This document shows, piece by piece, positions 885 through 36,838 of a stretch of DNA of 64,000 bases (position 1 is its first letter; every line of letters starts with the position of its first letter). Source of the DNA: Tumidithrix helvetica PCC 7403 (GTDB taxonomy: Bacteria > Cyanobacteriota > Cyanobacteriia > Pseudanabaenales > Pseudanabaenaceae); contig NZ_CBDDRA010000001.1 of the NCBI RefSeq assembly GCF_965232925.1, forward strand, positions 1-64,000, given 5' to 3'. Both the position numbers and the translations under genes were made by a program. The notes beneath the pieces were generated by a model. It was not told where the DNA came from. It did not search any database and saw only the letters and a list, made by a program, of their open reading frames with translations.

Positions 885-3800
885 CTATCTTGAATTGACC
901 CTAATTCAATAATTGCAGAAGACCTTACTAAGAAGTCAGGATCTTTTAATGCCTTGAGAAGTTCTATTTTCACCTCTGGACAACCTAATTTAATAAGAGC
1001 TTCTAATACATTTCTACGAGTAGTAGAGTCTTCGCATCTTATGGCTTTTAATAGAGATGGACATGCTTTTTTATCTCCGAGTTGTCCTAAAGCTGATGCT
1101 GCACACGCCTTATTCGAGGGATTTTCATTCTCAATGATTTTAATTAATTGTGGTATGGCTTTACTTAGAATTTCAATTTCTTCTGGAAATTGTCGAATTA
1201 ATTTAGCATCTAAAATATTGCAAGCACTAAGTTGAACCCAACTATCTGAATCACTCAATGCTTCTATTACTTTTGACAGCGCATCTCTTCCCAAGAAGGT
1301 ATACAATTTCTGGATTGCATTACCTCTTTGAATGGGAATATTAGATTTTAAAGCAGAAATACACTGTTCTGCTTCTCTTTTTTGTATTGCCTCATGATTA
1401 AGACGTGAAGACTTTATATTTTTCTGGATTTGCAAAGATATTTGATCTCTCACAAATTCCAATGAATGTTCAGATTCCAAATGAACATAATGATCTAAAT
1501 CTAAACGTGCTTCGTTTAAGAGAGGAATAACTTCGCTACCACCTAATTCCCTCAACATTTTTACTACAGTTATTTTAAGTGATACATCTTTACTAGATAA
1601 AACTTTAGACAAGGTATTTAGAACCTTTTGGCGATCAAGTTCTTTTAATGTTTCAACTGCTAGTCTCTTTATTTGACGTTCAGGATTTTCTGTCGCTTTG
1701 AGTAAGCTAAGAATTGCTTCTTCATTCACAAATTTTTGCAATGCGAATACCGCTCTTAGGCGAACATCTACTGATGAGTCATTTTGTAACACTCTATCCA
1801 AAATTGGGATTGCAATGTTATTCTTAGAGTCACCTAAAGCCCAAACTATATTTTCTCGAATTTTAGGGGCTGAGTCTTTCAAAGCAATCTCCGATAGAGT
1901 AATAATTACATCGCAAGGCATTTTTCTTAATGCCCAAGCCGCTCTTCTACGAACATTTTCATTTTGATGGCTGAGTAAAGTTTTGAACCCATCGACAGAT
2001 TGAATTGACTCAGTTTTTTCTAAAAGCGTAATTTTAACAAGGTCAGTCGTATTAATATTTTCAACTAGCTTAACTGTTGTCTCCTGAATTTCTGCTTTTG
2101 CCTCACCTGATAGTCTTGCGCCCAAAAATAAATCAACATCTAAAGCTTGTTGTACGACTTGTTCTACTAAATCATTGATGTCTGGGAACCCAAGCATGAT
2201 AGCGATCGCCTCAGTCCATTTTAGATAATTGAGATAATCCATCTGAAATGGCGTATATTTCTGATCTTCTTTTTTTTCTATAAGTTCAGGTAGCTTAGCA
2301 AGTATATACTCTGCCGCATAGTACTCTTGAAGCGATGGATGGCAAAACTGAACTTTACGACTACCAGCAGTTCCATTACATTGTAATAAATGATTGCTCA
2401 ATAAATTTTTCCGTATTTTTTCTCTGCCAATCAAGGTCAGAACATCTCCTTCATTAAAAGGCTTTTCAGAACGAGTCATTTCAAATGCAAGTAAGCTTAA
2501 CTGGGATCGCATCTCGGTCAAAACAACCCAATCAACTTCATCTTTCGCTTCTCTGGAATAGATATCTGTAAATTCCTGGTAAGCTTCTCCACGAGTATTA
2601 GGAGTCTCTTTAAGAGGATTTTGCTTAAAAATAATGTATAACATCCAAACCATCAGAGGAGTTTGCCCAAAATCACGCACGCGATCGCATAACTCCTGAA
2701 CCCGACTATTACCATGATGATCGGGTAATTTTTCACTAAAAAAGTCTTTAACCTTTTCAGAGCTTAATGGTTGAATTTCTAGCTTTGTCTGGATGCCTAA
2801 ATTACCTACATTAATATCGCGTGTAGTTGCAATCATCGGGAGATGATCACCACAGAAATACTTAAAAGCTCTATATCCATCACTTGATAACTCATTAACA
2901 CCATCTGCAAGCAGCACTAACCGCTTATACTTAATAAGTCTCTTTATATAAGTTATCTGTTCACTTTCCTGCATCTCTTCCAAAAATTCAAATCCTTCAA
3001 ATGCATCTCTAATCAATAGTAAAAAATCTGACTGATTCTGATAATCTTTTAACTTAATTAATAGTGGAATAGGAGAATTTGGATTTTGTAGTGCTTCTTT
3101 TGCCGCTTCAAGCAAAACTTTAGCTAAAATAGTTGATTTACCCGCTCCTGCTTTACCAACAATTAAAACTCGTTCGCTTGAAACTTGGCTAAGTGCATCT
3201 AAAATTGGCAATATAGCTGTCTTATCATCATCACTCGCTGAAAGTGAATTAGTCTCATTATTGAGTTTAGACTTAGGCACCTTTACAGTTAGTTCAAGCT
3301 CCTGCCAAGGTGCATTATTAATTTCATTCATGAAAGAATAAGAATCTTCCCACCAATCTTGATATTTCTGCTTAACAGCCTCTAGATAATTCCCTTCCTC
3401 CAAACTCATCACACCATTTGCTTTTGCACAATCCATTGCTAGTTGCTTTTCTTTTCTTATTTCATCTATTTCATTAATAGTGGCTTGATGGATCTCTTCA
3501 CCACGACGGATAAAAACAGTGCTTTTCGGATATCGCGTTCCATTAGGGAGCATCAGATCGCGGGTTGTTTCATGCAAATAAGGTGTGGGCGGAATAGATA
3601 CTATGAATAGTTGTTTACTATCCATCTCTATGAATTTGCATTGGATATCAGGAATAGGTGGATTACAGCAAGCATTAACTTTTTGAAGGATTTCTTTAGG
3701 AGTCAATGTAATGTGACTACAATCATACAAGTCTCTTGTTCCATCAGATTTCAGTTTGTCTTCAACTCCAACAATCAAAAATGCCGTTTCCCCAGCAGTA

Positions 3801-3964
3801 CCAATATTCCCATTTACTAAAGCCAAAACATCTCTAACAAACTCATCTTGAAATTTAGCTTTCATTGACTTGTCAGATGAATCAACCATGTTCAACTGTC
3901 GCTTGAAGTCAAACTTTAACCCCTCTTTCCTTCCTAGCAATTCCTTAAGTTTTTCAATATTCAT
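836..3964 (-). CDS. STAND NTPase of 1042 aa with N-terminal AlbA_2/Schlafen-like domain, NACHT P-loop NTPase and C-terminal HEAT/PBS-lyase-like repeats
   Basis: The N-terminus LKFDFKRQL...ETAFLIVGVEDK matches the AlbA_2 pattern. Walker A is LIVGKAGAGKST and Walker B is LVLLADGVNEL. C-terminal repeats of the form DVRLRAVFALQKF, ENVRRRAAWALRKM and PKIRENIVWALGDS look like HEAT units. The gene is AT-rich and HIP1-poor compared with its flanks. Confidence 0.8.
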   Translation of the reverse strand: MNIEKLKELLGRKEGLKFDFKRQLNMVDSSDKSMKAKFQDEFVRDVLALVNGNIGTAGETAFLIVGVEDKLKSDGTRDLYDCSHITLTPKEILQKVNACCNPPIPDIQCKFIEMDSKQLFIVSIPPTPYLHETTRDLMLPNGTRYPKSTVFIRRGEEIHQATINEIDEIRKEKQLAMDCAKANGVMSLEEGNYLEAVKQKYQDWWEDSYSFMNEINNAPWQELELTVKVPKSKLNNETNSLSASDDDKTAILPILDALSQVSSERVLIVGKAGAGKSTILAKVLLEAAKEALQNPNSPIPLLIKLKDYQNQSDFLLLIRDAFEGFEFLEEMQESEQITYIKRLIKYKRLVLLADGVNELSSDGYRAFKYFCGDHLPMIATTRDINVGNLGIQTKLEIQPLSSEKVKDFFSEKLPDHHGNSRVQELCDRVRDFGQTPLMVWMLYIIFKQNPLKETPNTRGEAYQEFTDIYSREAKDEVDWVVLTEMRSQLSLLAFEMTRSEKPFNEGDVLTLIGREKIRKNLLSNHLLQCNGTAGSRKVQFCHPSLQEYYAAEYILAKLPELIEKKEDQKYTPFQMDYLNYLKWTEAIAIMLGFPDINDLVEQVVQQALDVDLFLGARLSGEAKAEIQETTVKLVENINTTDLVKITLLEKTESIQSVDGFKTLLSHQNENVRRRAAWALRKMPCDVIITLSEIALKDSAPKIRENIVWALGDSKNNIAIPILDRVLQNDSSVDVRLRAVFALQKFVNEEAILSLLKATENPERQIKRLAVETLKELDRQKVLNTLSKVLSSKDVSLKITVVKMLRELGGSEVIPLLNEARLDLDHYVHLESEHSLEFVRDQISLQIQKNIKSSRLNHEAIQKREAEQCISALKSNIPIQRGNAIQKLYTFLGRDALSKVIEALSDSDSWVQLSACNILDAKLIRQFPEEIEILSKAIPQLIKIIENENPSNKACAASALGQLGDKKACPSLLKAIRCEDSTTRRNVLEALIKLGCPEVKIELLKALKDPDFLVRSSAIIELGSIQDRESIPDLINLQKILMS

Positions 3965-4030
3965 GGCAGAGGCATTAAGAAGGTTACAATTGAGGCAGAG
4001 TGATTGAGTAGCAACTATGCTTGTAATATC

Positions 4031-4291
4031 TCACCTATACACATCCTTCCGATGGGCGATCAAGAAGATTGTAATATTCTTGCTTTTCTCATCAACGAGA
4101 TAAACCACTCTGTAATCACCAATGCGATATCGCCAATAGCCCAAAAAATTTCCTTTTAGTTTCTTAATATCAGAACCTTGATAAGGGTTTTGACTCAAAT
4201 TATCAAAGCATTCATTCAATTGAAGGACTAACTCATTCTCAGCTTTATCGTAGAACTTTTGAGCCTTACGAGTCATCAATATCTCATACAT
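4031..4291 (-). CDS. RelE/ParE-family type II toxin
   Basis: The 86-aa product ends ...RYRIGDYRVVYLVDEKSKNITIFLIAHRKDVY, the RelE/ParE signature. It overlaps the upstream antitoxin ORF by 8 nt. Confidence 0.8.
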   Translation of the reverse strand: MYEILMTRKAQKFYDKAENELVLQLNECFDNLSQNPYQGSDIKKLKGNFLGYWRYRIGDYRVVYLVDEKSKNITIFLIAHRKDVYR

Positions 4292-4535
4292 GGCGGCGAA
4301 TACTTTTGAAAGAAACTACATCCCCTCTTTCAACCTCTCGTAAAGCCTCTTGAAAGTCATTTTCAAAGTTAGGAATACTCAATAACTCATCTGTTGCCTC
4401 ATTGCTTTCTCTTTCGTCCAGATAAGCTAAAAAATCAGCAGCCACGCGCAACCGTTCAGGTGAGAGCCTTTTCAAAATTGCCTCGATCTTTTGGACAGTA
4501 TAGAGATTTTCAGCAATAACTTCCATATAAATCAC
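4284..4535 (-). CDS. type II antitoxin, partner of RelE/ParE; family unassigned
   Basis: A small acidic ORF sits immediately upstream of the toxin and overlaps it translationally, which is the classic TA operon layout. Confidence 0.55.
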   Translation of the reverse strand: MIYMEVIAENLYTVQKIEAILKRLSPERLRVAADFLAYLDERESNEATDELLSIPNFENDFQEALREVERGDVVSFKSIRRHV

Positions 4536-4708
4536 CCGAAATACATACTGCTAACATTTTACAAGAAAATTAAGTTAGGTCGATTTAGCAATCACCTTTA
4601 GCTAGTCTGATGTAGATCGCGACTCTGCCCAAAACAAATGCGATAGCTCGTGCTTTATTTGCTGCAATCGTAAAAAATAATCACATTGTTTACAATATAG
4701 TGTAGCCA

Positions 4709-5017
4709 GTGAACTCAAAACCTTGTATGCGATCGCTAAACACAGAGATCCTTAACGGAGAACCCTATAGCTATTATCCACTTGGACAATACGTCGTTCG
4801 AGCCGTTGGAGTTTGTGGCGATCGCCCAACCTTCAAATATACGCGCATCGAAATTACAGGCGCGATCGAACGGCTAGCTACAGGTGAAAGTATGGATAAC
4901 ATTGTGCAGGGATTTCGCGGACGCGTATCCCGTGAGGCAATTTCAGAAGCTCTCCAAGTTGTAACCACCCATTTTCTTGAAAGTCTTCCAAGTAGCATGA
5001 TTGTCCTTAACGAATAA
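4709..5017 (+). CDS. DUF433-like small protein
   Basis: RPTFKYTRIEITGAIERLATGESMDNIVQGFRGRVSREAISEALQVV follows the DUF433 pattern of GxRpxxxGTRI plus an 'eeIledyp...aL' helix. There is no obvious partner gene. Confidence 0.45.
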   Translation: MNSKPCMRSLNTEILNGEPYSYYPLGQYVVRAVGVCGDRPTFKYTRIEITGAIERLATGESMDNIVQGFRGRVSREAISEALQVVTTHFLESLPSSMIVLNE

Positions 5018-5125
5018 CTTATTGCGATCTCTTATACATTCTTTACGACGAGGTACACAGAAGCTAAGATGGCGCGATGTAGAATCGCTATGCTCCTTAT
5101 TTGTTAATAATTTCAGTCTAAGCCT

Positions 5126-6025
5126 ATGTTTGAAGTCTCAGTTCCTGCCACCACTGGTAATCTTGGTCCCGGGTTTGACTGTTTAGGTGCAGCCCTATCG
5201 CTTTATAACAAGTTTCAGTTTGCGGTGTCAGACGAGCTGAAGATTACAGCCTCTGGGGCAGGGGCAGATAAAGTTGCGAAAAATAAATCCAACCTTGTTT
5301 ACGAGAGCTTAGAAAAGTTTTATGCCCATATCGGTCAGCCAAAACCAATTATCTCTCTACATATTGATGCTCAGGTTCCGCTAGCAAGGGGGTTAGGTAG
5401 CTCGGCAACGGCAATTGTGGGTGGATTGGTAGGGGCAAATCTCTTGGCTGGCTCCCCTCTAGATCAAAAAGATTTGCTGCAATTGGCGATCGACATGGAG
5501 GGACATCCCGATAATGTCGTACCTGCCATGTTAGGCGGCTGCTATTTGATGGCTTCCAATAAAAGTGGCGGATGGGAATTTTGTCCAATTAACTGGCATA
5601 AACAGGTGGCGATCGCGATCGCCATTCCCAACTTTGAGCTTTCGACTGCCAAAGCCCGTCAAGTTTTGCCCCGCGACGTTCCGATGAAAGATGCCATCTT
5701 TAATGCCTCGCACTTAGCCCTGTTAACCCACGCCCTTACCACGGGCAATCAAGATTGGCTGCAATCGGGCTTGCAAGATCGCCTCCATCAACCCTACCGT
5801 CAAAGCCTAATTCCGGGGATGGAAGCCGTCCAGAAAGCGACGATCGAGGCAGGAGCCTATGGCATGGTGATCAGTGGGGCTGGCCCAACCCTATTAGCGC
5901 TTGGTAGCCCTGCTAAAATAGAAGCAGTAGCAGAAGCAATGCGTGCGGCTTGGCAAGAAACGGGTATGATTTCGACAGCGAAATGCCTCGCGATCGCCAA
6001 GAATGGCACAACTATTACAGGTTAA
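5126..6025 (+). CDS. thrB: homoserine kinase (GHMP kinase family)
   Basis: PATTGNLGPGFDCLGAAL is the GHMP motif, and the 299-aa length and overall layout match ThrB. Confidence 0.9.
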   Translation: MFEVSVPATTGNLGPGFDCLGAALSLYNKFQFAVSDELKITASGAGADKVAKNKSNLVYESLEKFYAHIGQPKPIISLHIDAQVPLARGLGSSATAIVGGLVGANLLAGSPLDQKDLLQLAIDMEGHPDNVVPAMLGGCYLMASNKSGGWEFCPINWHKQVAIAIAIPNFELSTAKARQVLPRDVPMKDAIFNASHLALLTHALTTGNQDWLQSGLQDRLHQPYRQSLIPGMEAVQKATIEAGAYGMVISGAGPTLLALGSPAKIEAVAEAMRAAWQETGMISTAKCLAIAKNGTTITG

Positions 6026-6199
6026 TTGCCTGAAGCACTTCAGCTACCTTAGCTTGCTACGGTTGACTACAGCGCTGAGACTGCGATCGCTTTGACGATC
6101 TGCGATCGGCGGTAGTGTATATTGTGGCTAATCTTTGTAGGCTAAAATCTCTATAGGTCTCTCGGTTAATATTCATTTTGTCAGTCGTTTGGAATCTCT

Positions 6200-6463: not shown

Positions 6464-7465
6464 TTGATTGGGATTTCTAATTCTTTGAGTAAACTAACTT
6501 CACCCTTACGCGTTGGTATTGTTGGTACTGGCTTTGTTGCCAAGTTACGCGCTGAAATTTTAAGCCAAGATCCGAGGGTACAACTCAAAGCGATCGCAGG
6601 TAGCGCCGACAAAGCCAATGCCCTTGCCCAAGCCTTTAATATCGAAGCCCATTCCTATTGGTCTGAGCTAGTGGTCAGACCCGATCTCGATCTCGTGGTT
6701 GTTGCCAATGTCAATCGCGATCACGGTGCAGTTGTGGCTCAAGCACTTAGAGCGGGTAAGCATGTCATTGTCGAATATCCTCTAGCCTTTAGCTATTTCG
6801 AAGCGGAAGCTCTCGTGCAATTGGCTCAAGCCAACCATTTACTCCTCCATGTCGAACATCTCGAACTGCTCGGTGCGGTTCATCAAACTGTCACAAAGGT
6901 TTTGCCAGACCTAGGGGAGCCATTTTATGCGCGTTATGTGACTCAAAATCCCCAGCGTCCAGCCCCAGATAAATGGACCTATATGCCAGAGCTGTTTGGG
7001 TTTCCCTTGGTCGCCGCAGTTTCGCGCGTGCATCGATTGACGGCTCTATTTGGTAAAGTCAAGTCGGTTGCTTGTCAGTTGCGCTATCAAGGCGATGCCT
7101 TGCCTCGACGATATACTTCTTGTATTTGCAACGCCCAGCTTCAGTTTGTCAGTGGGCTAGTTGCCGATATTAGCTACAGCAAAGGCGAACATCTGTGGAA
7201 ATCAGAGCGCAGTATGGAGATTCAAGGTAGCAGTGGTGCTGTTTTATTTGAGGGTGAGTCGGGCAAATTAATTACGGCAGATGGTGAAACCGTACTTACC
7301 GTCGATAGTCCTAAGGGTCTGTTTAAACGCGATACAGAAAATGTTTTAGACTATTTGTTTGATGGCGTTCCACTCTATACCAATTCGGACAGTTCGCTCC
7401 ACGCGATCGCAGTCGCCTGCGCTGCCGAAAAAGCGGCAAAAACAAATACTGTGATTGAAGTTTAA
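6464..7465 (+). CDS. Gfo/Idh/MocA-family NAD(P)-dependent oxidoreductase
   Basis: The N-terminal Rossmann fold VGIVGTGFVA is followed by the EYPLA motif characteristic of this family. Confidence 0.85.
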   Translation: MIGISNSLSKLTSPLRVGIVGTGFVAKLRAEILSQDPRVQLKAIAGSADKANALAQAFNIEAHSYWSELVVRPDLDLVVVANVNRDHGAVVAQALRAGKHVIVEYPLAFSYFEAEALVQLAQANHLLLHVEHLELLGAVHQTVTKVLPDLGEPFYARYVTQNPQRPAPDKWTYMPELFGFPLVAAVSRVHRLTALFGKVKSVACQLRYQGDALPRRYTSCICNAQLQFVSGLVADISYSKGEHLWKSERSMEIQGSSGAVLFEGESGKLITADGETVLTVDSPKGLFKRDTENVLDYLFDGVPLYTNSDSSLHAIAVACAAEKAAKTNTVIEV

Positions 7466-7657
7466 AGCGATCGCTGAGAAATCGATTTGCGTATGAGAAG
7501 ATACATAAGAAAACTGTAAGAGAGTGTTTGAGAAGTTAAGCAAGTCGCTTTAGGAGAATTTGAATCATCGCCTCAGGTGGCGCTAGTTCCAACCTCAAAA
7601 TTACGGTTAAGTGTGCATTTCCCAAGAAACCTGCCTAATTTTTAAACATTCCCCGCT

Positions 7658-8692
7658 ATGGCAATCAACAAAGTACTGCTGCTATCAGCCAATCCAACCA
7701 ATACCGATCGCTTGCGGGTAGAGGCAGAATTTCGCGAAATCGAGACCTGTTGTCAAAAATCGACGTTACGCGATCGCTTTGCGATTGTGGCAAAAGGAGC
7801 CTTACGGATTGAGGATCTGCAACCCGTTTTGATTCAAGAAGCACCCAAAGTGGTGCATTTTTCGGGACATGGGGCAGCAGAGAATGGATTGGTTTTAGAA
7901 ACGGATGCAGGCACATGGGAACTGGTTGCCACAGAACCCCTCGCGGAACTGTTTCGCATTCTCCAAAATGGTATTGATTGCGTCGTGTTAAATGCTTGTT
8001 TCTCTCAGGTGCAGGCAGAGGCGATCGCCCATCATGTGCCCTACGTCTTGGGCATAAATCAGGCAATTGGCGATACGGCAGCGATCGCATTTGCCAAGGG
8101 ATTTTATGGCGCACTGTTTGAAGGCAAATCGGCGAAGGATGCCTTTGAGTTGGGCAAAAATCGCATCGCCTTAAAAAATATTCCCGAAGTTCAAACACCA
8201 GTTCTGATAGAACGCCACGGCGGAACACATCCCCAAAATGGGAATCGCATCCCCAACCAAGTTTTACCACTCCAGATCGCGCTAGAAGAACCCGAAGGAA
8301 CGGTACGAATTGGTTTGCAATTCTACATTCCCCGATCGCCTCAAGAAGAAGGCGCCTACGAAGCGATCGCCCGCCTCCATGCTCTCTTTCGTTTCAAGTC
8401 TCCCGATCGCATGGGCAAATCTTCGCTCTTAGTGCGAACCTTAGAAGAAGCCCGTCGATTGGGCAACCGCACGACATGGAGCGACCTGCAAAAATGCGAT
8501 CGCAAATTCCTAGAAAACATGGATCGGTTTTTGCAATGGTTCTGTGTTGTGATTGGACGCAATTTGGGCGTGAAAGCCAAACCAACCGATAGATGGGATG
8601 ATGTTTTTGGCGCCAATGGTATCTGTACGGAATTTTTTGAAGAACATCTGATCGGCGAGGATTATGAAAAAACTTTTGCAACTGGGGCTTAG
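7658..8692 (+). CDS. CHAT-domain (caspase-like) protease fused to a truncated AAA-like (AAA_35) domain
   Basis: The catalytic dyad context is VVHFSGHG ... CVVLNACFS. The N-terminus KVLLLSANPTNTDRLRVEAEFREIE is typical of cyanobacterial CHAT proteins. The C-terminus FRFKSPDRMGKSSLL...FLQWFCVVIGRNL matches the start of the cyanobacterial AAA-like domain, but the ORF stops before the expected Walker B. Confidence 0.75.
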   Translation: MAINKVLLLSANPTNTDRLRVEAEFREIETCCQKSTLRDRFAIVAKGALRIEDLQPVLIQEAPKVVHFSGHGAAENGLVLETDAGTWELVATEPLAELFRILQNGIDCVVLNACFSQVQAEAIAHHVPYVLGINQAIGDTAAIAFAKGFYGALFEGKSAKDAFELGKNRIALKNIPEVQTPVLIERHGGTHPQNGNRIPNQVLPLQIALEEPEGTVRIGLQFYIPRSPQEEGAYEAIARLHALFRFKSPDRMGKSSLLVRTLEEARRLGNRTTWSDLQKCDRKFLENMDRFLQWFCVVIGRNLGVKAKPTDRWDDVFGANGICTEFFEEHLIGEDYEKTFATGA

Positions 8693-33961: not shown

Positions 33962-36838
33962 ATGCGCTCTCGTCTGAAATTAATTGGTGTTACTGCGATC
34001 GCGCTATCTCTCTCTTTCAGCCAAGTCTCTACCCTCTATCCCCTAGAACCTGCTTCTGCCCAAACAACACAAGAGCGCAAGCTAGTTTTAGCATTGAATG
34101 AATCGCTTAGGGAATTACTAGGGCCTGCTTCTGCCCAAACGACACTACTAAATCGTCAGGCAGAGGCAGATCGGCTGTTGCAGCAAGGGATTCAGCAAGC
34201 TTACATCAGTCAGTTTGAGGCAGCATTTCAATCATGGCAGCAAGCATTACAGATTTACCGAGCGATCGGCAACCGTCAGGGAGAAAGCTATGCGCTGGGA
34301 AATCTGGGAAACGTATACCAAGCCCTCGGCAAGTACGACAAAGCCATCGAGTACGCAGAGCAAGCCTTAGCGATTGCGCAGGAACTAAAAGACAAAAAGA
34401 GTGAGGGTACAGCGCTAGGAAATCTGGGAAACGCTTACTATTCCCTCGGCAGGTACGACAAAGCGATCGAGTACCAACTGCAAAGCTTAGCGATCGCGCG
34501 GGAAATCAAAGACAGACTGGGTGAGGGACAGTCGCTGGGAAATCTGGGAATTGCTTACAATGCCCTCGGCAAGTACGACAAAGCGATCGAGTACCAACTG
34601 CAAAGATTAGCGATCGCGCGGGAAATCAAAGACAGACTGGGTGAGGGACAGTCGCTGGGAAATCTGGGAAACGCTTACGATGACCTCGGCAAGTACGACA
34701 AAGCGATCGAGTACCAACTGCAAAGCTTAGCGATCGCGCGGGAAATCAAAGACAGACTGGGTGAGGGACAGTCGCTGGGAAATCTGGGAATTGCTTACCG
34801 AAACCTCGGCAAGTATGACAAAGCCATCGAGTACCAACTGCAAAGATTAGCGATCGCGCGGGAAATCAAAGACAGACTGGGTGAGGGCGCAGCGCTGGGA
34901 GGTCTGGGACTCACTTACTTTTATCTGGGTAAGTACGACAAAGCGATCGAGTACCAACTGCAAAGCTTAGCGATCGCGCGGGAAATCAAAAACAGACTGG
35001 GTGAGGGTACAACGCTGGGAAATCTCGGAATTGCTTACGATGCTCTCGGCAAGTACGACAAAGCGATCGAGTACCAACTGCAAAGATTAGCGATCGCGCA
35101 GGAAATCAAAGATAGGAAGGGTGAGGAACAGTCACTGGCAAATCTGGGAATTGCTTACCGAAACCTCGGCAAGTACGACAAAGCGATCGAGTACCAACTG
35201 CAAAGCTTAGCGATCACGCGGGAAATCAAAGACAGACTGGTTGAAGGCGCAGTGCTTGGAAATCTGGGAAACGCTTACATATACCTCGGCAAGTACGACA
35301 AAGCGATCGAGTACCAACTGCAAAGCTTAGCGATCACGCGGGAAATCAAGGATAGAGAAGGCGAAGGCAAAGCGCTCAACAATATCGGCTCTGTCTTGGC
35401 AACCCAAAAACAACCAGATCTTGCCATTCTCTTTTACAAACAATCCGTCAAAGTATGGGAGTCCATTCGCAAAGATATTCGCAAACTCGATAAATCGGAG
35501 CAAAAATCTTATTTAGAAACCGTCTCTGTTAGCTATCGTAGTCTCGTCGATCTCCTACTCCAACAAGGGCGAGTCACTGAAGCATTACAAGTTCTCGACT
35601 TGCTCAAAATCCAAGAACTCGAAGACTATCTCAAAAATGTCAAAGGAAACGATCGCACGGCAAAGGGAGTCGAACTTTTAGCGCCAGAGAAAGCGATGAG
35701 CGAACAGCTATCAGCTCTCAGCTATGAAAAGATTCCAGAACTCAACCGCCAACTTGCCAGCCAGATTCAGCAACTGCCAAAATCAGAAATCAACAAAGTT
35801 CCTGACTACTTACAAAAGCTACCAAAAGGAGCTGTCCTACTCTATCCCCTGATTCTCGAAGATCGTTTGGAACTGATCGTCTTCTCCGCCAATACCTTCC
35901 CCATCAACCGCACCGTTCCCATCAAAAAAGCCGATCTAGAGAAACTCGTTACAGATGTTCGCGCTGACTTGCGAGACTACACTTCCCTAGACATCAAAAA
36001 CTCTAGCCCCAAACTCTACGACATTCTGATCAAACCCATCGAAGCCGATCTCAAACAAGCCAACGCTACCACCATTCTCTATGCCCCTGACGGAATCCTG
36101 CGCTACATTCCCCTTGCTGCACTTTATGATGGCAAACAGTGGTTAGTAGAGAAATATCGCATCGATAACCTGATTGCCTATAGCCTCTTCGATCCAGATA
36201 GCAAACCTCAATCCAACATTCGTATCTTTGCAGGTGCATTTGGTGGTAAAAAAGGAGAAAACCGATTTGGAGTTGACGGATTGCCTGCCACCATTCCCGA
36301 AGTCGAAAACATTCAAACTTCATTCCCAAATACGACCAAGCTCATCGAGCAGGACTTCACAGCCCAAGCCAGCAAAGTAAAAGTTTCTGGTAATGCGATC
36401 GTCCACATCGCCACCCATGCTAAGTTTATATCGGGCAGCCCCTTAGATTCCTACGTGTTGTTTGGCGATGGCAGCAAAGTCACCCTAGCCGAGATTAATG
36501 ACTGGCAGCTCAAGGATGCCGATTTAGTCGTTCTCAGTGCCTGCGAGACAGGTGTAGGCAGCTTAGGCAATGGTGCGGAAATTCTCGGTTTTGGCTATCA
36601 GGTACAGCGTGCGGGGGCAAAGGCTTCGATCGCTTCTCTCTGGACGGTATCCGATGGCGGCACGCAGTTGTTAATGGAAGCGCTGTATAGCAATTTGCAA
36701 AAGGGAAATACCAGCATGTCAACTTCGCTCAGAGAGGCACAGCTCAGCATGATTCGCAGATCGGTAAAGCAGGGAGAGATTAACTTCAACCATCCCTATT
36801 ACTGGTCTGCTTTCGTCCTGATTGGGAATGGGCTGTAG
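33962..36838 (+). CDS. TPR-repeat / CHAT-domain protease, 958 aa
   Basis: There are more than 10 TPR units (LGNLGNAY...GKYDKAIEY). The C-terminal CHAT dyad context is IVHIATHAKF ... LVVLSACETG. Confidence 0.85.
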   Translation: MRSRLKLIGVTAIALSLSFSQVSTLYPLEPASAQTTQERKLVLALNESLRELLGPASAQTTLLNRQAEADRLLQQGIQQAYISQFEAAFQSWQQALQIYRAIGNRQGESYALGNLGNVYQALGKYDKAIEYAEQALAIAQELKDKKSEGTALGNLGNAYYSLGRYDKAIEYQLQSLAIAREIKDRLGEGQSLGNLGIAYNALGKYDKAIEYQLQRLAIAREIKDRLGEGQSLGNLGNAYDDLGKYDKAIEYQLQSLAIAREIKDRLGEGQSLGNLGIAYRNLGKYDKAIEYQLQRLAIAREIKDRLGEGAALGGLGLTYFYLGKYDKAIEYQLQSLAIAREIKNRLGEGTTLGNLGIAYDALGKYDKAIEYQLQRLAIAQEIKDRKGEEQSLANLGIAYRNLGKYDKAIEYQLQSLAITREIKDRLVEGAVLGNLGNAYIYLGKYDKAIEYQLQSLAITREIKDREGEGKALNNIGSVLATQKQPDLAILFYKQSVKVWESIRKDIRKLDKSEQKSYLETVSVSYRSLVDLLLQQGRVTEALQVLDLLKIQELEDYLKNVKGNDRTAKGVELLAPEKAMSEQLSALSYEKIPELNRQLASQIQQLPKSEINKVPDYLQKLPKGAVLLYPLILEDRLELIVFSANTFPINRTVPIKKADLEKLVTDVRADLRDYTSLDIKNSSPKLYDILIKPIEADLKQANATTILYAPDGILRYIPLAALYDGKQWLVEKYRIDNLIAYSLFDPDSKPQSNIRIFAGAFGGKKGENRFGVDGLPATIPEVENIQTSFPNTTKLIEQDFTAQASKVKVSGNAIVHIATHAKFISGSPLDSYVLFGDGSKVTLAEINDWQLKDADLVVLSACETGVGSLGNGAEILGFGYQVQRAGAKASIASLWTVSDGGTQLLMEALYSNLQKGNTSMSTSLREAQLSMIRRSVKQGEINFNHPYYWSAFVLIGNGL
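34290..35390 (+). repeat. about 9 tandem copies of a 120-nt unit (40 aa; TPR units) with very high nucleotide identity
   Basis: The unit ...ctcggcaagtacgacaaagcgatcgagtaccaactgcaaag(c/a)ttagcgatcgcgcgggaaatcaaagacagactgggtgagggacagtcgctgggaaatctgggaa... recurs head-to-tail. Confidence 0.7.

Follow-up and report, generated by a model that had tools for sequence, protein, structure and literature searches.

Does a caspase-like protease gene that stops in the middle of its ATPase domain still make a working protein, or is it what remains of a lost defence system? This question is raised by an open reading frame (ORF) at positions 7658-8692 of a 64,000-nucleotide (nt) stretch from the cyanobacterium Tumidithrix helvetica PCC 7403 (contig NZ_CBDDRA010000001.1, positions 1 to 64,000; this whole stretch is hereafter termed the window), in which a CHAT protease domain is fused to the beginning of an AAA_35 domain. 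An earlier note on this DNA had described the ORF as a CHAT-AAA gene truncated by an insertion or a deletion, and had left a deregulated protease and a dead gene side by side as outcomes. Based on comparison with full-length relatives and with the corresponding locus of the sister species T. elongata, window 7520-8692 is very probably the decayed remnant of a three-part module of the abortive-infection type (toxin precursor, protease, and ATPase switch) that was clipped at both ends. As the toxin gene and the sensor are both gone, the ORF itself is most likely a young pseudogene and the module no longer a working defence system but a dead relic. The truncation at both ends and the presence of an insertion sequence (IS) stub upstream go beyond what the earlier note had seen.

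The features of the truncated ORF (with amino acids as aa) are:

7658..8692, forward strand: truncated CHAT-AAA_35 ORF of 344 aa, consisting of 335 homologous codons and a 9-codon out-of-frame tail (ORF list, Pfam, and alignment)
7706..8146, forward strand: CHAT caspase-like protease domain, aa 17-163 (Pfam, PADLOC 'chat', conserved columns, and ortholog model)
8219..8242, forward strand: in-frame insertion of 24 nt, aa 188-195, in the CHAT/AAA_35 linker (alignment with seven relatives)
8291..8653, forward strand: N-terminal third of AAA_35, with strand 1, Walker A, strand 2, and the following helices (Pfam and secondary-structure map of the ortholog P0003)
8663..8692, forward strand: non-homologous tail YEKTFATGA*, the start of the DUF1176 gene read out of frame (alignment and junction comparison)

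Both halves of the fusion were recognized by Pfam, as the earlier note had anticipated. The CHAT domain (PF12770) was detected at 34.9 bits (E 1.5e-8; cut-off 24 bits), and AAA_35 (PF14516) at aa 212-332 with 107 bits (E 1e-30; cut-off 27 bits). The AAA_35 match covered profile positions 2-122 of 331 only, whereas the ortholog P0003 matched positions 2-330, and the window protein thus lacks a complete AAA_35 domain. The PADLOC 'chat' model also matched the CHAT part (E 2.9e-13); this was the only part of the ORF recognized by PADLOC, which has no AAA_35 or Trypco1 model, and an NCBIfam search with the 344-aa protein returned no family. The catalytic dyad reported in the earlier note was found to be intact, with His71 in HFSGHG (nt 7868-7870) and Cys114 in LNAC (nt 7997-7999). 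Cys114 was invariant and His71 at least 90% conserved in an alignment of 72 relatives, and the dyad columns were also conserved in an eight-sequence alignment. Walker A is likewise present (G253-K254-S255, nt 8414-8422). When aligned with full-length relatives (orthologs of ~535 aa), homology was found to end with the residues ...EEHLIGED at codon 335 (nt 8662). At this point the relatives go on with DDRPLVIAIDN, in which the Walker B Asp is the 10th residue past the break, in agreement with the distance that the earlier note had estimated. The Walker B strand (LVIAIDN in the orthologs, starting 5 residues past the break) is therefore missing from the window protein. The missing C-terminus (~200 residues), for which the earlier note had proposed a check of the downstream frames, was found in no frame of the 64-kb window by tblastn with P0003, P0006, P0053, and T. 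elongata P0002. The 24-nt linker insertion was unique to the window copy compared with the seven aligned relatives. The 344-aa protein itself has a database entry, named 'AAA-like domain-containing protein [Tumidithrix helvetica PCC 7403]', and is annotated by NCBI as an ordinary coding sequence (CDS). A promoter and terminator scan of 7300-9900 gave fewer promoter-like matches than shuffled sequence and none upstream of the ORF.

The structural consequence of the break was examined on an AlphaFold model of the ortholog P0003, which is 80% identical to the window protein (72-sequence alignment, mean predicted local distance difference test score 90). The parts of this model, by P0003 residue, are:

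N-terminal half, to ~185: CHAT domain
~186-221: linker
236-240: strand 1
247-260: Walker A helix
264-269: strand 2
up to 324: helices
333-338: strand 3 (LVIAID, Walker B)
373-379: strand 4
398-401: strand 5
C-terminal: helical lid, then winged helix

A caspase-like fold of the protease half was supported by a Foldseek match of P0003 to SAVED-CHAT (8tl0; E 6.5e-11, root-mean-square deviation [rmsd] 2.5 over ~190 columns), and the AAA_35 half returned, at E 1e-7 to 1e-5, the RPP1 NLR, Avs4, ORC/Cdc6 proteins from archaea and eukaryotes, and the Dark apoptosome. Mapped on this model, window homology stops at P0003 residue 328, before strand 3, such that two of the five ATPase core strands would be kept. 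The arrangement of nucleotide-binding domain (NBD), lid, and winged helix is complete in the P0003 model, whereas the window protein is without Walker B, strands 4 and 5, lid, and winged helix. An ATPase stub of this extent should not be able to fold, as judged from the model, and likely misfolds.

How the remainder of the gene was lost can be read from the sister locus. The features at the right-hand break are:

8657..8662, no strand: 3′ deletion junction with GAGGA(T) microhomology, ~1,153 nt missing compared with T. elongata minus its IS (sister-locus comparison)
8664..9713, forward strand: DUF1176 gene, signal-peptide-like at its N-terminus, which does not belong to the defence system and forms the right edge of the deletion (Pfam DUF1176, E 1.5e-21)

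The DUF1176 ORF, which is the signal-peptide protein gene of the earlier note, overlaps the stop of the truncated ORF by 29 nt. Its T. elongata ortholog (P0121) is 93% identical, and synteny is kept downstream. The T. elongata version of the CHAT-AAA_35 protein is 360 aa in length, 92% identical, and ends 37 nt before a contig end. This contig (L001) contains a full Trypco1 gene, CHAT-AAA_35 codons 1-357, the triplet TTA, and an IS end. The continuation was not found among the 21 IS-bearing T. elongata contig ends because all of these flank the same IS end, and it was located instead via the DUF1176 ortholog. There, a second contig (L029) reads the other IS end, TTA, and then CTGCGCGGCTGG... 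(translated LRGWHEDGKH...), the remainder of AAA_35 (profile positions 151-330). Downstream of this are a ParD-like gene, a ParE-like remnant, DUF1176, RRM, and Band_7, with the DUF1176-RRM-Band_7 order as in the window. A match of 92.9% between L029 1111-5067 and window 8657-12612 indicates that the two loci are orthologous, and the IS ends with TTA on both sides in L001 and L029 indicate that in T. elongata a simple IS insertion, with TTA as the duplicated target, has split a gene that is otherwise full-length. Since the T. elongata locus keeps the missing C-terminal part upstream of the same DUF1176 gene, the window has lost ~1.15 kb by deletion, which decides between the insertion and the deletion that the earlier note had considered. 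To look for the missing part elsewhere in the T. helvetica genome, the C-terminal fragment of T. elongata was searched against a database; the matches were all short fragments with identities no higher than 69%, and known full-length relatives were missed.

The sequence GAGGA is common to the AAA_35 coding sequence (GGT GAG GAT GTG...) and the region preceding DUF1176 (GAGGAGTTATG). The junction fuses codon 335 to a point 1-2 nt before the DUF1176 ATG and leaves GAGGAT-T in front of this start codon, where T. elongata has GAGGAG-TT. A Shine-Dalgarno-like motif is thus preserved, although DUF1176 has lost its native upstream region, and its transcription must now begin within or upstream of the relic. 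Between AAA_35 and DUF1176, L029 744-1118 encodes a ParD-like antitoxin (87 aa) and an apparent C-terminal remnant of a ParE-like toxin; this segment falls inside the stretch deleted in the window.

A second lesion was identified upstream, where the features are:

7517..7519, no strand: TAA target triplet adjoining the IS end (TNA rule of the IS copies)
7520..7569, reverse strand: 50-nt IS5-family terminal stub, with the inverted repeat GAGAGTGTTTGAGAAGT and the last ~10 transposase codons (...ILLKRLA*) (94% to the last 50 nt of a T. elongata contig)
7565..7569, no strand: 5′ deletion junction, TCATC microhomology of IS interior and Trypco1 (three-way comparison with L006, which is an intact IS copy, and the Trypco1 gene of T. 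elongata)
7567..7638, forward strand: Trypco1/Pepco remnant, codons 97-119 (IASGGASSNLKITVKCAFPKKPA, 7567-7635) and stop (7636-7638) (tblastn)

In T. elongata, the Trypco1 gene is complete (L001 5622-5981) and ends 19 nt before the CHAT-AAA_35 start. When the 119-aa product (PF19493, E 6.4e-21) was used in tblastn, the window matched aa 96-119 only, at 96% identity, with no trace of the N-terminal part (first 96 codons) in the 64 kb. An unrelated gene, for a GFO_IDH_MocA oxidoreductase, has its stop 51 nt before the stub and its TAA triplet. The 50 nt that follow the T. elongata break correspond to window 7519-7568, a position upstream of the truncated ORF. A tandem duplication or circular permutation was considered for this 50-nt segment and rejected, the segment being the terminus of a multi-copy IS. 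In 21 T. elongata contigs, a 25-mer of the IS end was found ~25 nt short of the contig end, and it also occurred inside L027, a contig of a Pseudanabaenaceae metagenome-assembled genome; a scan of a genome collection with this 25-mer returned no T. helvetica record. In L027 (1326-2233), the element is ~905 bp, with the inverted repeats GAGAGTGTTTGAGAAGT and ACTTCTCAAACACGCTC and a 268-aa transposase carrying DUF4096 and DDE_Tnp_1. A TNA triplet (tta, taa, or tga) adjoined the IS end in all 24 of 24 copies. The multi-copy element is classified by these sequence features as an IS5-family insertion sequence, given that DDE_Tnp_1, inverted repeats, and a 3-bp TNA duplication were present in the L027 copy and the T. 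elongata insertion. No transposase and no intact IS copy were detected in the 64-kb window.

Two deletions are evident from these comparisons: (i) one that runs from the interior of the IS5-family element into Trypco1 codon 96/97 through the TCATC microhomology; and (ii) one that runs from AAA_35 codon 335 to the DUF1176 start through the GAGGA microhomology, ~1.15 kb in length. The latter took with it strand 3 (Walker B) and strands 4 and 5, along with the lid, the winged helix, and the ParD/ParE remnant. Window 7520-8692 is accordingly a ~1.1-kb fragment of a Trypco1-CHAT-AAA_35 operon, with both sides clipped at microhomologies and one cut starting inside an IS. These junctions also bear on whether the join was made during assembly, with the real gene being full-length and possibly IS-interrupted as in T. 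elongata. The sequence is carried by one assembly only, and IS copies of the same family break sister-species assemblies. However, both junctions join unique sequence via 5 shared nt, far below the length of assembler k-mers, the 429-kb contig runs unbroken across both, and the right flank is syntenic with T. elongata. Furthermore, had an IS been collapsed, one would see its two ends or a break in the contig instead of a 50-nt stub joined to Trypco1 codon 97. An assembly artefact is thus regarded as very improbable.

Several side observations were made on the IS and the upstream flank. At least 21 copies of the IS5-family element are present in T. elongata, with the assembly broken at each (contig ends L005-L026), and the L027 copy lies directly beside another Trypco1 gene (141 aa) and a putative subtilase-like peptidase gene, the latter identified by eye. 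In the window, a small ORF at 4709-5017, upstream of thrB, is DUF433-like (antitoxin-like) by eye; T. elongata has DUF433/DUF5615, ParD, and PIN genes upstream of Trypco1. When the upstream regions of the window and T. elongata were compared by blastn, no DNA similarity was found.

The family to which the ORF belongs was examined to determine how its members usually end. About 110 of the 120 relatives listed were 505-600 aa in length and carried both domains. The orthologs (~535 aa, mostly 531-538 aa, 73-80% identical) were from Pseudanabaena and metagenomes, and the full AAA_35 region was covered in 7 of the 7 relatives compared in this identity range. Short family members of 285, 300, 309, and 360 aa were also among the relatives listed, and these are what could be cited for a natural short variant consisting of CHAT and a partial NTPase, with no truncation at all. 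The two short forms examined nonetheless end at other points with visible lesions, namely the IS insertion of T. elongata and an internal deletion in L032, a metagenome contig in which (2956-6121) codons ~285-495 of CHAT-AAA_35 are lost and codon ~284 is joined out of frame to codon ~496. A natural end at codon 335 would have spoken against the truncation described in the earlier note, but such an end was seen in none of the 120 relatives listed. In addition, the last 9 residues of the window protein are the neighbour's signal-peptide codons read out of frame, and the syntenic sister locus retains the rest of the gene. A natural short variant is, therefore, extremely improbable. The L032 deletion is read from its sequence as a third, independent decay in the CHAT-AAA_35 gene family; on this contig, Uma2-family endonuclease genes are found on both sides, with one between Trypco1 and CHAT.

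The gene neighbourhood of the relatives was found to vary. Trypco1 lies upstream of CHAT-AAA_35 in T. elongata and L032. A second AAA_35 gene is present downstream of CHAT-AAA_35 in L002, L003, L004, L032, and L033, as follows:

L002 8370-12050 and L003 2463-6143: second AAA_35 gene of 1,226 aa with WD40 repeats
L032 5651-8858: second AAA_35 gene of >990 aa with WD40 repeats
L004 3694-4653 and L033 3800-6115: second AAA_35 gene, AAA_35 only detected

An XisH/XisI pair lies between the two genes in L002-L004. It is plausible that the second AAA_35 gene encodes a separate sensor subunit, which may co-assemble via AAA_35. The Tumidithrix locus is without this second gene.

Selective constraint on the window copy was estimated from the ratio of nonsynonymous to synonymous substitution rates (dN/dS). 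Between the two Tumidithrix CHAT-AAA_35 copies, dN/dS was 0.143, and 0.095 in the CHAT part, compared with 0.095 for DUF1176, 0.042 for Band_7, and 0.05 for two intact orthologs. When amino acid changes were polarised with an outgroup, 7 were derived in the window lineage and 3 in T. elongata, a difference that is not significant (p = 0.34). Together with the linker insertion, these values fit a recently inactivated gene, with residual constraint on CHAT possible. As a separate observation, dS between the two species was 0.19 for the CHAT-AAA_35 fragment (7658-8662) vs 0.35-0.36 for DUF1176/Band_7 (8664-12585), which could be due to chance, codon bias, or more recent exchange.

The alternative is a working free CHAT protease, either deregulated through loss of the NTPase switch, an outcome that the earlier note had named, or domesticated, e.g., as a dominant-negative or decoy partner of a paralog. 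The ORF is open over the 335 homologous codons with His71 and Cys114 intact, the CHAT part has a dN/dS of 0.095, NCBI annotates the gene as an ordinary CDS, and an intact CHAT-AAA_35 paralog (P0053; 530 aa, 45% identical) is present in T. helvetica. However, the low dN/dS largely reflects the period in which the gene was whole, prior to two inactivations that were recent and independent, and the cognate Trypco1 has been deleted together with any promoter upstream of it. The ATPase stub, with two of five core strands, is predicted to misfold. Related effector-NTPase proteins, as known from the STAND type, are thought to require NTPase-driven assembly to switch on; by this relationship, a protease that has lost its NTPase should fall silent and not be set free. 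Selection would, moreover, probably act against a caspase-like protease that is constitutively active, and T. elongata tolerates having this gene disrupted by an IS. A free protease is thus considered unlikely, and of the two outcomes in the earlier note the dead gene is much better supported, with Trypco1 deleted and only two of five strands left, while the deregulated protease is less so. Retention of the truncated ORF for some new role is also quite improbable, whether this would be as a stand-alone CHAT protease, as a decoy or dominant-negative subunit of the paralogous system, or as a transcribed and translated leader that provides DUF1176 with a promoter and translational coupling. The leader idea is suggested by the deleted native upstream region of DUF1176, the 29-nt overlap, and the GAGGA kept before its ATG.

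Certain findings weigh against the interpretation of the locus as a dead relic. First, no stop or frameshift occurs in the 335 homologous codons and the dyad is intact, dN/dS (0.14; CHAT 0.095) is far from neutral, and the excess of 7 vs 3 derived changes is not significant; as such, the sequence alone fits both a very recent pseudogene and a still-constrained gene and cannot separate the two. Second, both junctions are known from one assembly (one member, one contig), and a second assembly of the truncated ORF is not on record. Third, the missing parts may have been relocated beyond the 64-kb window. Fourth, Trypco1 is absent at the closest full-length Pseudanabaena loci (L002-L004) and at the paralog locus (L033), which suggests that this partner is not obligatory and that its loss alone is no proof of lost function. 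Lastly, no experimentally characterised CHAT-AAA_35 protein was found, with a literature search for AAA_35/PF14516 yielding only noise, and the mechanism proposed below rests on analogy as a result. Nonetheless, loss of both the toxin gene and the sensor makes a dead relic the most likely state, and the independent IS inactivation of the same gene in the sister species suggests that the system is dispensable in Tumidithrix.

In its intact form, as seen in relatives, the module consists of a ~119-aa Trypco1/Pepco gene positioned 19 nt upstream of the gene for a ~535-aa CHAT-AAA_35 protein, the AAA_35 NTPase of which is predicted to have a P-loop core, helical lid, and winged helix and to resemble STAND and ORC/Cdc6 proteins. 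The names Trypco1/2 were introduced for domains of conflict systems that are associated with peptidases (Kaur et al., eLife 2020, PMC7159879). Pepco (= Trypco1/2) has been described as a beta-barrel assembled in advance, which turns into a pore-forming toxin once an adjacent sensor-fused protease removes its C-terminal tail, and it is reported to pair with cysteine proteases as well and to be common in cyanobacteria; Pepco cleavage with toxicity or phage defence is known only for SsPepco-SsAvs4 (Evans et al., bioRxiv 10.1101/2025.11.14.688446). By analogy to Pepco-Avs4, a trigger would induce NTP-dependent assembly of AAA_35 and thereby activate the CHAT protease, which may then clip Pepco, already assembled as a barrel, at its C-terminal tail, such that a membrane pore would form and the infection abort. 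Of the parts that define a Pepco module, the window has an incomplete Trypco1 gene and a truncated protease-linked switch domain, the latter being complete in the orthologs.

With regard to annotation, the deposited 'AAA-like domain-containing protein' CDS should be flagged as a pseudogene. Each of the two sister species has inactivated this locus independently, T. elongata by IS insertion and T. helvetica by microhomology deletions with an IS scar, and a third lineage has an internal deletion; this repeated decay fits the view of suicide-type systems as costly and often lost. The T. elongata locus, when its IS is removed in silico, provides a cyanobacterial Trypco1 and CHAT-AAA_35 pair that is relevant to a possible licensing of Pepco-type toxins by caspase-like proteases. 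Elsewhere in the window, HIP1 was found at 90 occurrences vs ~1 expected, an abundance typical of cyanobacteria, and at 34490-35097 six HIP1 octamers (GCGATCGC) were spaced exactly 120 nt apart, implying that a 120-nt unit is tandemly repeated there.

The locus was also compared with known systems. The upstream stub corresponds to IS5-family elements of ~905 bp with a single DUF4096 and DDE_Tnp_1 transposase, inverted repeats starting GAG, and a 3-bp TNA duplication, which we take to be IS1031-group-like; of such an element, the window holds a 50-nt terminal stub only. For the protease half, the closest solved structure and sequence match was SAVED-CHAT (PDB 8tl0; type III CRISPR/CBASS-like signalling), at phmmer E 3.4e-11 against the PDB, Foldseek E 6.5e-11, and ~25% identity. 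This is likewise a caspase-like protease switched on by assembly, with the difference that its regulator is a SAVED cyclic-nucleotide sensor N-terminal to CHAT, whereas here a C-terminal P-loop NTPase is found. The modelled AAA_35 half of the ortholog appears to have the NBD-lid-winged-helix arrangement in common with STAND/NLR-like NTPases (Avs, RPP1, and Dark) and ORC/Cdc6, and many STAND/NLR-like NTPases have an N-terminal effector followed by the NTPase, as in CHAT-AAA_35. However, the matches are of 9-16% identity with large-rmsd superpositions and place AAA_35 in neither clade specifically, and the CHAT-AAA_35 polypeptide is without a C-terminal TPR, WD40, or LRR sensor, with a separate AAA_35-WD40 gene often downstream in the relatives.

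The gene order and logic of the intact T. elongata locus are the same as in Pepco-protease modules (SsPepco-SsAvs4 of Streptomyces subrutilus), with a ~119-aa Trypco1 directly upstream of a protease-NTPase. The two differ in that (i) the protease is a trypsin-like Ser protease in SsPepco-SsAvs4 and a CHAT caspase-like Cys protease here; (ii) the NTPase here is AAA_35 without long C-terminal sensor repeats; and (iii) the Pepco gene of the window is reduced to 23 codons and its NTPase to a stub, such that the module is not functional. CHAT-Trypco1 cleavage is putative. The feature belongs, in degraded form, to a type of system already known; it is an ordinary decaying gene, and no new kind of protein.

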